Below, in pieces: positions 18,688 through 21,241 of a stretch of 28,645 nucleotides of DNA; positions within the stretch are counted from its first letter, which is position 1, and the number at the start of each line of letters is the position of its first letter. A program made the position numbers and the translations under genes. Source of the DNA: a virus; IMG/VR virus record IMGVR_UViG_3300024259_000123, positions 1 through 28,645 of that record, one strand, 5' to 3'. The notes under the pieces were generated by a model, which saw only the letters and a program-made list of their open reading frames with translations, was not told where the DNA came from and ran no database searches.

Positions 18688-18717
18688 TTTGTACATCGCC
18701 ATGGTGGCGGGTATAAT
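18688..18717 (+). promoter_or_regulatory. sigma70-like promoter candidate TTGTAC-N18-TATAAT upstream of natV-nadV
   Basis: Perfect TATAAT at 18712-18717 with a -35-like hexamer at 18688-18693. The 144-nt leader carries two GCCGGGAGGC direct repeats (18749-18758 and 18783-18792). Confidence 0.35.
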
Positions 18718-18830
18718 TAGATCATGAGGACAAGGGGTTCTCGTAAATGCCGGGAGGCAAACAGCGAAACATCATAATCACAGCCGGGAGGCTTAGGTTG
18801 ATTGTGGTCCTAGCAAGGAAGAGTGTATAA

Positions 18831-19835
18831 ATGAGTGATAATAAAAAGCGTGAGATTGGAGTCGTGGTCGGGAGATTTCAGATTCCGGAGTTGCATGCAG
18901 GACACGTTGGTGTTCTGGATGAAGTGGCTGAGACCCACAACAAAGTGATCGTGTTCCTCGGGATTTGTCCCGGTTTGGGAGACAAAAGGAATCCACTGGA
19001 TTACGATCTACGAAAAAAGATGATTCAGGAAAAGTACCCTGAGATTATTGTTCTACCAATTTCAGACCAAGAATTCGACAAGCCCTGGTCTGCCCTCTTA
19101 GACAAGAAGATTCGAGAAGTGTGTCCTGTTGGAGATGTTACCCTTTACGGTAGCCGAGACAGCTTCATGTTGCGATACCATGGTGTCTTCCCAACCGTTG
19201 AGTTGGAGCAGAAGATTTACATCAGCGGAACACAGGTTCGAGCCGAAGCAGCACTACGTGCCAACGGTTCAATCGACTTCCGCCGCGGTGTCATTTACGG
19301 TTCATACAATCGTTACCCGACTGCGTATGGCACGACCGACATGGCTGTCATCAACTACAAGACGAATGAAGTCTTGATGGGTCGTAAGTATGAAGGTGCC
19401 AAGCTACGGTTCCCTGGCGGCTTTTTGCAGCCCGGAGAAACCCATGAGCAAGGAGCTCTCCGAGAATTCAACGAGGAAACCGGTGGGAACATTGAGGTGA
19501 GCAAGCCACTCAAATACATTGGCTCTTTCGTTATCGACGACTGGCGCTATCGAAGACGTCAGGATAAAATCACGACTGTGTTTTTCACCGGTGTGTACTT
19601 GTGGGGACCCATTGAGGCGACAGATGATTTGTACGAAGTCGAATGGGTCAAAATCGAAAGGCTTAAGTGTGGACTGGATGTTTTGCCGTCAACGATTTCA
19701 AATTTCGTTTGCGATGAGCACGTTCCGCTTTGCAATGCACTAGTGGAGCACATTGAAAAAAACATGCCAAAGGAACGTACAAGACTGTCCCCGAAGAAAG
19801 TGAAGATCACATCGAAGAAAGAGGTGAAAGCATGA
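18831..19835 (+). CDS. natV: bifunctional NMN adenylyltransferase / Nudix hydrolase (NatV-like)
   Basis: N-terminal GVVVGRFQIPELHAGH is the nucleotidyltransferase (H/T)xGH motif. C-terminal Nudix box GFLQPGETHEQGALREFNEETGG. Gene order with nadV matches Vibrio phage KVP40. Confidence 0.75.
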   Translation: MSDNKKREIGVVVGRFQIPELHAGHVGVLDEVAETHNKVIVFLGICPGLGDKRNPLDYDLRKKMIQEKYPEIIVLPISDQEFDKPWSALLDKKIREVCPVGDVTLYGSRDSFMLRYHGVFPTVELEQKIYISGTQVRAEAALRANGSIDFRRGVIYGSYNRYPTAYGTTDMAVINYKTNEVLMGRKYEGAKLRFPGGFLQPGETHEQGALREFNEETGGNIEVSKPLKYIGSFVIDDWRYRRRQDKITTVFFTGVYLWGPIEATDDLYEVEWVKIERLKCGLDVLPSTISNFVCDEHVPLCNALVEHIEKNMPKERTRLSPKKVKITSKKEVKA

Positions 19836-21241
19836 GCTACTACAACAAGAACATCGATCCAAAAAACATTATCTTGATGACAGATTCATACAAGGTATCA
19901 CATTCCAAGCAATATCCTGAGGGAACTGAGACCGTTTACTCCTACTTTGAGAGTCGCGGCGGTGAATTCGACGATGTTGTCTTCGTGGGACTGCAGTACT
20001 TCTTGCAGGAATACCTCGAGGGACAGGTCGTAACACAGGAACGCATCGACGAAGCAGAGGAATTCTTCCATCTGCATTTCGGCAACGATACGTGTTTCAA
20101 CCGAGAAGGCTGGGAGCACATTCTCAATGAGCATGATGGGCGGTTGCCCGTCAGAATCAAAGCGGTCAGGGAAGGAACAGTTGTTCCGACCCACAACGTG
20201 ATGTTGACGATTGAGAATACAGACCCGAAGTGTTGGTGGTTGACCAATTACCTCGAGACCTTGCTGGTTCAGGTTTGGTACCCGTGCACCGTGGCAACGA
20301 TTAGTCGGGCCAGCCGGTTGATTATTGCTGCGGCACTGGAGAAATCCGGAACACCAGCAGGCATCTACTTCAAACTGCACGACTTCGGTTTCCGTGGTGT
20401 GTCGTCTGTTGAAACTGCAGGCATCGGTGGCTTCGGTCACCTTGTCAACTTCATGGGAACAGATACGGTGGCAGCCTTGGTATTGGCCAGGAACCACTAC
20501 AACACTCAAATGGCAGGATTCAGCATTCCAGCCAGTGAGCACTCGACAATTACATCGTGGGGAAAGGAAGGCGAGGTCAATGCCTTTCGAAACATGCTGG
20601 AGCAATACCCAACCGGACTGGTTGCATGCGTTTCAGATAGCTACGACATTTACAAAGCGTGCTCAGAATTGTGGGGTCAGGAACTGAAAGCAGAAATCCT
20701 GGCTCGAGATGGAACGCTGGTCGTACGGCCGGACTCAGGAGACCCACAGAGTGTTGTCCTGGAGTGTCTGGAGCGTCTTGGGGAGGCCTTTGGATTTACC
20801 ACCAACAAGAAAGGTTACAAGGTCTTAGATTCTCACGTGCGTATCATCCAAGGGGATGGTGTTGACCGCTTTGTGATTGCCCAGCTTCTTGATGCAATCA
20901 TGGCAGCTGGTTGGAGCGCTGATAATATCGCATTCGGGTCAGGAGGAGCCTTGCTCCAGAAGATGAACCGTGACACCCAGAAGTTTGCATTCAAGTGTTC
21001 TTGGATTAGCGTAAATGGTGAAGGCCGAGACGTGTTCAAGGATCCGATTGATGCTCCAGGTAAGCGCTCGAAGCCGGGCCGACATGCCTTGGTTGCAATG
21101 ACAGGTAGAGACGGAAATAAAATCATGACCGTTCCGGAGTCTTCGGCATCAGATGCTGACCTGCTCGAGACGGTGTTTGAGGATGGTGAGGTGACACAGG
21201 ATTACACGCTGGACGAAGTCCGCAAGAACACGTGGGGTTAA
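19832..21241 (+). CDS. nadV: nicotinamide phosphoribosyltransferase (NAMPT/NadV)
   Basis: 469 aa with long collinear similarity to NAMPT, e.g. LHDFGFRGVSSVETAGIGGFGHLVNFMGTDTVAAL, PASEHSTITSWGKEGE, DSYDIYKAC, RPDSGDP, IIQGDGVD and IAFGSGGALLQKMNRDT. Confidence 0.9.
   Translation: MSYYNKNIDPKNIILMTDSYKVSHSKQYPEGTETVYSYFESRGGEFDDVVFVGLQYFLQEYLEGQVVTQERIDEAEEFFHLHFGNDTCFNREGWEHILNEHDGRLPVRIKAVREGTVVPTHNVMLTIENTDPKCWWLTNYLETLLVQVWYPCTVATISRASRLIIAAALEKSGTPAGIYFKLHDFGFRGVSSVETAGIGGFGHLVNFMGTDTVAALVLARNHYNTQMAGFSIPASEHSTITSWGKEGEVNAFRNMLEQYPTGLVACVSDSYDIYKACSELWGQELKAEILARDGTLVVRPDSGDPQSVVLECLERLGEAFGFTTNKKGYKVLDSHVRIIQGDGVDRFVIAQLLDAIMAAGWSADNIAFGSGGALLQKMNRDTQKFAFKCSWISVNGEGRDVFKDPIDAPGKRSKPGRHALVAMTGRDGNKIMTVPESSASDADLLETVFEDGEVTQDYTLDEVRKNTWG

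Follow-up and report, generated by a model that had tools for sequence, protein, structure and literature searches.

A conserved three-hairpin RNA motif in the leader of a phage NAD+ salvage operon, with a possible role as a translational operator

The 28,645-nt stretch of viral DNA analysed here (IMG/VR record IMGVR_UViG_3300024259_000123, positions 1 to 28,645; 'the window') carries natV and nadV, two genes for the rebuilding of nicotinamide adenine dinucleotide (NAD+). The genes are already known, but the leader in front of them is a new, previously undescribed structured RNA motif, which folds into three consecutive hairpins (P1, P2 and P3) shortly before the ribosome-binding site of natV. 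Sequence comparison shows a genuine motif, which is rare, limited to a single phage clade and absent so far from the databases searched. We infer its regulatory mechanism, and tentatively favour a translational operator bound by a protein.

The original prediction had drawn attention to two 10-bp direct repeats, 34 bp apart, in this leader, and suggested that they could be operator sites or an RNA element. The repeats are indeed exact copies: the window has two occurrences of GCCGGGAGGC and no more, one at 18749-18758 and the other at 18783-18792, 34 nt from start to start. By itself such a repeat is only mildly unusual. A direct repeat of at least 10 nt arises in 30 of 5000 dinucleotide shuffles of the leader (0.6%) and in 6 of 396 overlapping 144-nt segments of the real sequence, which correspond to ~4 distinct places; with one mismatch allowed, two matches are reached in 20 of 100 shuffles of the window. 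The feature exceeds chance because it is conserved in relatives, where its base pairs covary. In the predicted fold, the repeats are the identical CC-GGGA-GG tips of hairpins P2 and P3.

Relatives were found by protein-guided retrieval, which yielded natV-nadV loci from marine metagenomes whose NatV proteins are 96, 84, 69, 67, 66 and 63% identical to that of the window; one further locus, L116, was found through NadV. In all retrieved relatives the gap in front of natV measures about 120-190 nt, and all gaps share one order of elements: promoter, P1, a hairpin with a GGGA loop, an A(A/G)CAGC linker, a bulged hairpin tipped by GGGA, (A)UUAGG, GCAAGGAG and the start codon. The leader set leaves out contig P0001 (gap only, of the same 144 nt as in the window), P0136, which ends at a contig edge, and P0140, a bacterial NrtR-nadV locus. 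We aligned the eight distinct leaders with MAFFT, blind to structure (alignment A3), and used an alignment of seven sequences (A1) for RNAalifold.

When the explicit P1-P2-P3 structure is placed on A3, 96.8% of 189 cells are in standard pairs, and 15 of the 24 pairs show compensatory changes on both sides among the eight leaders. In none of 500 column shuffles does the pairing, the count of pairs with both-side changes or the covariation score reach the observed value, and in a control in which the 3′ partners were slid by 1-3 columns, pairing is 36-50%. RNAalifold recovers the helices of P1, P2 and P3 from A1 unaided, and single-sequence folds give three hairpins in most homologs, with z-scores of -0.9 to -3.3. 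An all-versus-all scan of columns gave no convincing pseudoknot or long-range covariation, only extensions of P2 (39-52) and P3 (66-103). G-U pairs account for 24 of the 189 paired cells; since these are mismatched on the other strand, for which pairing would be about 84% (a derived value), the structure is that of a + strand RNA and not a DNA palindrome. The leader is thus a conserved, structured RNA of the + strand, backed by covariation.

Each hairpin contributes to this pattern. In P1, both sides have changed in five of the seven pairs across the eight sequences, and the single-sequence folds of most homologs also give this hairpin. The GGGA loop of P2 and its closing C-G pair are invariant (8/8), the stem pairs vary between GC, AU and GU, and 100% of the cells are paired. 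P3 has both-side changes in 7/10 pairs of the lower stem and 2/3 of the upper, with 96-100% of cells paired. The repeats themselves change in a paired manner, from GCC..GGC to GUC..GAC in L001 and to GCU..AGC in L013, and these substitutions, together with the G-U pairs on the + strand, support the suggestion that the repeats are parts of an RNA element. As to whether they are conserved in any relative, the GGGA tips are found in all eight full-length leaders, six of which additionally keep a shared repeat of 8-10 nt.

The stems and the loops have diverged very differently. Relative to the distant lineages, the window differs in 44-52% of its paired positions, which nonetheless still pair; the corresponding figures are 11-22% for loops and 42-60% for linkers. 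The GGGA sequence persists in 16 of 16 loops, ACGG, ACAGC and UAGG are kept as well, and altogether about 30 nucleotides are conserved in sequence, in loops, junction and internal loop. Because the loops change far less than the stems, their sequence, beyond mere shape, seems to be under constraint, as would be expected of recognition sites. The motif is also independent of what precedes it. The upstream gene varies: it is IMPDH-like in the window's subgroup only, small open reading frames (ORFs) stand there elsewhere, and in L013 and L116 it lies on the opposite strand. As the leader nevertheless precedes natV in every lineage, it travels with natV. In relatives, a gene for a HAD-like protein of 141 aa and one for a small membrane protein flank the leader in place of the IMPDH-like gene.

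The gap between the upstream gene and natV (18687-18830) measures 144 nt and contains a consensus TATAAT (18712-18717), both as originally described. The natV promoter is of host type and is followed by a leader of about 107 nt, whose transcript probably starts near 18724. All eight leaders keep this promoter, with TGTACA, TATACA or TGTAAA as the -35 element, a 16-nt spacer and the same -10 element, and five have an extended -10 (TGn). In all lineages P1 begins 7-8 nt past the -10 element, and therefore lies at the inferred 5′ end of the mRNA. The pattern TGTAMA-N15-17-TAKAAT is found four times in the window, always on the + strand, where 0.02 occurrences are expected. Behind the other three promoters of this class an ORF begins only about 20-40 nt downstream, so the elaborate leader is specific to natV and not a habit of the phage. 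At the other end of the leader, GCA(A/C)GGAG stands before natV in 8/8 leaders.

Two features of the leader region lie outside the three hairpins. The spacer of the natV promoter holds a small palindrome, which takes the form TGCC..GGCA in L004 and CGCC..GGCG in L001; its pairing is kept in three close relatives, and it has no obvious counterpart in the distant lineages. It could be a stem-loop that ends the transcript of the upstream gene, or a protein site within the promoter. By inspection, the linker between P2 and P3 (J2/3) has a run of three to six A-R-N triplets (e.g. AAC AGC AAG AAC) in the window and in L001, L004, L011, L018 and L116. Hfq binds repeats of A-R-N with its distal face, and the triplets may simply reflect the A-richness of the linker.

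The motif is narrowly distributed. Two covariance models, R1 and R2, score 102-117 bits on members of the clade and at most 11 bits elsewhere. There is no second copy in the window, where with filters off the next best match has 9 bits, or in the loci of the relatives. Among 79 IMG/VR loci with more distant relatives of NatV (≤ 47% identity), we found neither a covariance-model match nor twin GGGA hairpins upstream of natV. Strict and relaxed scans of IMG/VR with DNA patterns returned the clade's own contig and otherwise GC-rich chance matches only, and pattern scans of 185,579 cellular genomes gave no match or two chance matches. A neighbouring marine clade (L117-L120) has nadV with a separate gene for nicotinamide mononucleotide (NMN) adenylyltransferase (NMNAT), and a simple single-hairpin leader in the same position; in L117 and L118, the NMNAT gene and one for an HD-domain protein lie downstream of nadV.

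Nor does the leader belong to a family that has been described in the sources searched. A scan of the window with Rfam 15 at gathering thresholds, which took in the NAD+-II pnuC motif, the ykkC, phosphoribosyl pyrophosphate (PRPP) and guanidine classes and CsrB, CsrC and Rsm, matched only the transfer-messenger RNA (tmRNA) and three tRNAs, and left the leader unmatched. Permissive scans (E ≤ 10) of the leader and its homolog in L011, over 126-141 nt, gave only chance-level scores of 7-14 bits. A resemblance of ACGG, CCGGGAG and UAGG to ykkC-type consensus elements received no support from the Rfam model. In the literature on riboswitches, phages, NAD+ salvage and NAMPT genes we found no description of such a leader.

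What the motif does must be judged in part from what follows it. Between P3 and the natV start codon there is no terminator or attenuator. The Shine-Dalgarno sequence and the AUG have a high probability of being unpaired in all eight full-leader folds, none of which contains a helix that hides either of them, and inspection revealed no conserved alternative pairing. One candidate, a pairing of the pyrimidine-rich 3′ strand of P1 with the Shine-Dalgarno sequence, works in L005 and L011 and fails in the window and L013. As there is no terminator and both elements are unpaired, either a trans-acting factor is needed or there is no switching. We infer that such a factor is a protein and that its effect is repression. 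The searches located the motif in a single phage clade and in none of the cellular genomes scanned, which favours a lineage-specific protein site over a riboswitch borrowed from a host.

Our preferred reading, which we hold with less than even confidence, is a translational operator: a bivalent RNA-binding protein, of the CsrA type, would bind the twin GGGA loops of the leader and the Shine-Dalgarno GGA. A dimeric protein would recognise the GGGA loops of both P2 and P3, and would then either bridge to the third GGA, in the Shine-Dalgarno sequence, or stabilise P3, the base of which lies ~6 nt before that sequence; in either case, binding of the 30S subunit would be blocked. The protein could be of the CsrA/RsmA type, and could equally be encoded by the phage. 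Since the ATGA overlap places the start of nadV within the stop codon of natV, regulation at the single ribosome-binding site of natV would govern the amounts of both enzymes, and the overlap should couple their translation.

The geometry of the leader is consistent with such an operator. Across the eight leaders, the C-GGGA-G tips are 33-37 nt apart and the P3 loop is 30-33 nt from the Shine-Dalgarno GGA, and 8/8 have a GGA in each of the loops of P2 and P3 and another in the Shine-Dalgarno sequence, as in leaders bound by CsrA. High-affinity sites of CsrA are GGA motifs in hairpin loops, from which the dimer bridges to a site that overlaps with the Shine-Dalgarno sequence (PMC5027483). The Shine-Dalgarno site here, CA-A-GGA-G, fits the CsrA flanking consensus, unlike the two loops (see below). 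A need for control is also plausible. According to Osterman et al. (10.1101/2024.02.11.579819), NAD+ reconstitution pathway 2 (NARP2), to which the two genes correspond, overproduces NAD+ and uses up PRPP, and the operon of Vibrio phage KVP40 is toxic in Escherichia coli. Because the pathway is costly and the KVP40 operon toxic, natV-nadV would need to be controlled, and the amounts of the two enzymes are probably governed by the leader. Repression would limit the drain of PRPP and ATP by NARP2 until the pathway is needed.

Several observations weigh against a CsrA-type operator. The loops read C-GGGA-G instead of A-N-GGA or CAGGA(U/A/C)G, so that C and not A precedes the motif, and GGA is not enriched above the purine-rich composition (P 0.34-0.50). 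The sole resemblance in Rfam is to CsrC and has a chance-level score (7.4 bits, with a gathering threshold of 61; E 2.1). With CsrA queries, tblastn found no csrA-like gene better than E about 1 in the window, which is 28.6 kb of a genome of maybe ~318 kb, or in the loci of the relatives, and none of the neighbouring genes accompanies the motif consistently. Two proteins mentioned above, the HAD-like one of 141 aa and the small membrane protein, were considered as trans-acting factors and rejected, as they have no counterpart in the window. CsrA also does not explain the conserved ACGGK loop of P1, which lacks the A of GGA, or the conservation of ACAGC, UUAG and the long P3. Finally, a metabolic operon preceded by a conserved leader of several elements is a classic setting for a riboswitch.

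The motif could accordingly be a new riboswitch class, which we regard as possible though doubtful. P1, P2 and P3 would form an aptamer in which the GGGA loops, ACGGK, ACAGC and UUAG supply a pocket or tertiary contacts, and the ligand could be NAD+, NMN, nicotinamide, ADP-ribose (ADPR), PRPP or an ADPR-derived immune signal; compaction of the RNA beside the ribosome-binding site would tune translation of natV-nadV. The strong covariation and the conserved nucleotides in loops, junction and internal loop are what such a reading calls for, the motif occurs only before one metabolic operon, whatever the upstream gene, feedback by a metabolite would be sensible because NARP2 is costly, and riboswitches made of tandem hairpins exist, NAD+-I among them. 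However, we found no expression platform in the leader, neither a terminator nor a conserved helix that would sequester the Shine-Dalgarno sequence, and its three hairpins are independent, without an enclosing helix or covariation indicative of a pseudoknot. No Rfam family matches it, and the ACANCCCC bulge of the NAD+-I riboswitch is absent from the leader and from every motif-bearing locus, which rules out membership of that class. The restriction to one narrow phage clade, together with the failure of strict-pattern scans to find the motif in the cellular genomes, also argues against a riboswitch.

A more specific idea, and an unlikely one in our estimate, is a phage-born riboswitch that reads the NAD+ pool or the host's NADase immunity, such that the enzymes are switched on only when the defence fires. 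It would sense NAD+, nicotinamide, ADP-ribose, PRPP or an ADPR-derived signal of the Thoeris type.

To a similarly low degree we credit a passive role, in which P1, P2 and P3 protect the mRNA from decay that depends on the 5′ end and keep the ribosome-binding site open, for steady high expression. The position of P1 at the inferred 5′ end in all lineages, the Shine-Dalgarno sequence and AUG that are always unpaired, the lack of any switch element among those looked for, and the simple hairpin that the L117-L120 clade has in the same position would all suit this role. Protection, however, requires only a hairpin, and yet GGGA (16/16), ACGG, ACAGC and UAGG have been kept while the stems changed by ~50%; and the short leaders behind the other three promoters of the class indicate that the elaborate leader is particular to natV.

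The original alternative, that the repeats are DNA operator sites, for example half-sites for a NAD regulator of the NrtR type, is now very improbable. The repeats do lie just downstream of the promoter, and a bacterial nadV regulated by NrtR exists, with L123 having NrtR beside nadV. But paired substitutions keep the pairing at the expense of the sequence (GTCGGGAGAC in L001, GCTGGGAAGC in L013), the G-U cells become A-C mismatches on the other strand, the stems covary far beyond the repeats, and no regulator gene lies near the operon in the window. That the repeats arose by chance in a non-functional spacer has next to no likelihood: although a 10-nt repeat appears in some leader shuffles and similar repeats occur elsewhere in the window, as noted above, conservation and covariation of the region extend to lineages with a NatV only 63-69% identical to that of the window, and the covariance-model scores of the relatives stand far above those elsewhere. 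A leader peptide (ATG at 18725 to TAA at 18778 in the window, 17 codons) was likewise rejected because its ATG is not conserved, being missing from L005, L011, L013, L018 and L116; in L001, a 1-nt indel shifts the stop.

By their domain content, natV and nadV appear to be an ordinary, already known NARP2 pair, as had been proposed. NatV matches the Pfam domains NUDIX (E 8e-15) and CTP_transf_like (E 1.6e-5, with 25.5 bits where the cut-off is 21). The solved structure most like it is 2qjo (E 8e-10), which is a bifunctional NMN adenylyltransferase/Nudix hydrolase. Its C-terminal domain carries the Nudix box GGFLQPGETHEQGALREFNEETGG, and we take this box, together with GRFQ..HAGH and ISGTQVR in the N-terminal domain, to be motifs of the respective families. 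There are 809 homologs of NatV at E ≤ 1e-20, and many of them are named bifunctional NMNAT/Nudix by JGI. NadV matches NAMPT_N (E 2e-41) and NAPRTase (E 4e-56), and solved NAMPT structures match its residues 12-467 at E 1e-150 to 1e-157. In the segment LHDFGFRGVSS...GHLVNF, the Asp and His presumably correspond to D219 and H247 of human NAMPT. The ATGA overlap of the two genes (19832-19835) is as originally reported; their order is not, since the first ORF matches NMNAT/Nudix and the second NAMPT, which makes the order natV, then nadV. Similarly, the comparison with KVP40 holds for the enzymes, which are those of NARP2, and less so for descent, as the kinship to the NatV of KVP40 is distant. 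A tblastn search with NatV in 50,697 phage records (INPHARED) found nine records, the best four of which, from huge uncultured phages and a jumbo phage, have 39-42% identity, and no Vibrio phage record at E ≤ 1e-5.

The window is part of the genome of an uncultured marine giant phage. Such an origin is indicated by the lack of a close relative of the 28.6-kb window among 50,697 deposited phage genomes, and by its tRNAs and tmRNA, an ORF resembling the major vault protein that has homologs in huge phages only, an RNA ligase and genes of purine metabolism. In addition, a NadV with 99% identity to that of the window falls in a cluster whose longest contig measures 318 kb. A Shine-Dalgarno motif is present at about two thirds of the likely genes of the window. 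The vault-like ORF is unusual content for a phage, and its only phage homologs, at 36-41% identity, are in uncultured huge phages of 462-735 kb. The natV-nadV operon is flanked by genes of purine-nucleotide metabolism (IMPDH-like and adenylosuccinate synthetase-like), and an RNA ligase gene lies upstream of natV in L005, L011 and L013 as well. A DUF2061 gene that starts 2 nt past the nadV stop may share the transcript of natV-nadV. Another ORF, with a sub-threshold match to the PARP catalytic domain, may be for an ADP-ribosyltransferase that consumes NAD+, encoded by the genome that also carries the salvage genes. The features are listed in Table 1.

Table 1. Positions of the leader elements, genes and other features, in window coordinates except for the last row
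Feature	Position	Strand	Basis
Sigma-70-type promoter of natV: -35 TGTACA (18690-18695), 16-nt spacer, -10 TATAAT (18712-18717)	18690-18717	+	Promoter scan, 10/12
Promoter class TGTA(A/C)A-N16-TA(T/G)AAT	1483-1510, 2720-2747, 16689-16716, 18690-18717	+	Pattern scan
Palindrome CGCCA-TGG-TGGCG inside the natV promoter spacer	18697-18709	+	Kept in three close relatives
P1, 7-bp hairpin (18725-18731 with 18737-18743), 5-nt loop A-(C/A)-G-G-(G/U), AAGGG in the window	18725-18743	+	Covariation, folds
P2, 4-bp hairpin UGCC-GGGA-GGCA, loop 18752-18755, holds repeat 1 (18749-18758)	18748-18759	+	Covariation
J2/3, single-stranded purine-rich linker, conserved core A-(A/G)-C-A-G-C	18760-18771	+	Alignments A1, A3
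P3, long bulged hairpin, holds repeat 2 (18783-18792)	18772-18807	+	Covariation
P3 lower stem; A18782 unpaired	18772-18781 with 18797-18807	+	Covariation
P3 upper stem GCC/GGC; GGGA loop 18786-18789	18783-18785 with 18790-18792	+	Covariation
P3 conserved internal loop (A)UUAG	18793-18796	+	Alignment
Ribosome-binding region GCAAGGA(A)G, predicted unpaired	18813-18823	+	GGA 9-14 nt before start codon
natV, bifunctional NMN adenylyltransferase (N-terminal) and Nudix hydrolase (C-terminal), 334 aa	18831-19835	+	Pfam, structure match
nadV, nicotinamide phosphoribosyltransferase (NAMPT), 469 aa	19832-21241	+	Pfam, structure match
ORF, 303 aa, sub-threshold PARP catalytic-domain match	66-977	+	Pfam, 22.4 bits vs cut-off 26.7
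Three-tRNA cluster: Gly(GCC), Arg(TCG), Thr(GGT)	7657-7886	+	Rfam, ARAGORN
Major-vault-protein-like ORF, 870 aa	8015-10627	+	Pfam shoulder and repeat domains, E 5e-21 and 1e-8
RNA ligase gene, two genes upstream of natV	16745-17650	+	Pfam RNA_ligase, E 1e-10
IMPDH/GMP-reductase family gene, directly upstream of the leader	17586-18686	+	Pfam, E 2e-84
DUF2061 small membrane protein	21243-21449	+	Pfam
Short adenylosuccinate synthetase homolog	24479-25495	+	Pfam, E 3e-78
tmRNA gene	27089-27448	+	Rfam, 92 bits; ARAGORN tag peptide ANDNSEYSYAQAA
Simple hairpin leader GGUUAGUGU...ACACUAACC before nadV in L117 and L118	2440-2500 in each		Own promoter

The pathway in question is one of anti-defence. 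In 10.1101/2024.02.11.579819, NARP2 is described as allowing phages to escape Thoeris, DSR, SIR2 and other defences that deplete NAD+; how phages regulate NARP2 is not addressed in the literature searched. The motif is an RNA of ~100 nt that is physically tied to this operon in a clade of uncultured marine giant phages, and under either the operator or the riboswitch reading it adds an RNA family that is absent from Rfam. As a protein-bound operator, the leader would point to a hitherto unrecognised regulator in an anti-defence pathway; as a riboswitch, it would represent a new class, possibly with a new ligand, and if that riboswitch reads NAD+ or immunity, it would be the first RNA sensor wired to an anti-defence pathway.

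Compared with known systems, the genes are closest to NARP2, the Nampt and Nmnat pathway of Vibrio phage KVP40 (Osterman et al., 10.1101/2024.02.11.579819). In both cases, NAMPT and an NMN adenylyltransferase are encoded by adjacent, co-oriented genes of a phage genome. Here, however, natV comes first, the genes overlap by ATGA, the NMNAT is fused to a Nudix domain and NatV is far from the versions of cultured phages; moreover, no regulatory leader was found described for NARP2 in the searched text of that source.

The leader shares with those controlled by CsrA/RsmA, and with the RNAs CsrB, CsrC and RsmZ, the presence of GGA in short GC-rich hairpin loops and in the Shine-Dalgarno sequence, at a spacing that a dimer could bridge. 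The GCC-AGGA-GGC hairpins of CsrC even align to both repeats, at a chance-level score. It differs from the CsrA/RsmA targets in its C-GGGA-G loops and in having the additional conserved ACGGK loop, ACAGC, UUAG and the long P3.

Among riboswitches, NAD+-I (the nadA motif) is a 5′ leader of the NAD pathway with tandem stem-loops that carry repeated elements, the second of them beside the ribosome-binding site (PMC7297122, PMC7708056). The phage leader likewise precedes a gene of the NAD pathway and has tandem stem-loops with repeated sequence elements. Apart from the missing bulge and the lack of an Rfam match, however, the repeated element is a terminal GGGA loop here and an internal bulge there, and the phage leader is found in phages before the salvage genes natV-nadV, whereas NAD+-I is found in Acidobacteria before nadA of the de novo pathway.

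In guanidine-II riboswitches (mini-ykkC), two small hairpins end in 4-nt loops that are identical, invariant and closed by C-G; the hairpins are joined by a variable linker and situated just upstream of the ribosome-binding site. The twin hairpins of the phage leader, with their identical C-G-closed tetraloops before the ribosome-binding site, are similar. The loops are GGGA instead of ACGR, though, and unable to pair with each other, P1 and the long bulged P3 are additional, and there is no match in Rfam. The targets of gp43, gp32 and RegA of phage T4 and the coat-protein hairpin of MS2 are lineage-restricted sites with sequence-specific loops near start sites, at which a phage protein limits translation. 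The natV leader differs from these phage translational operators in its three hairpins with twin loops.

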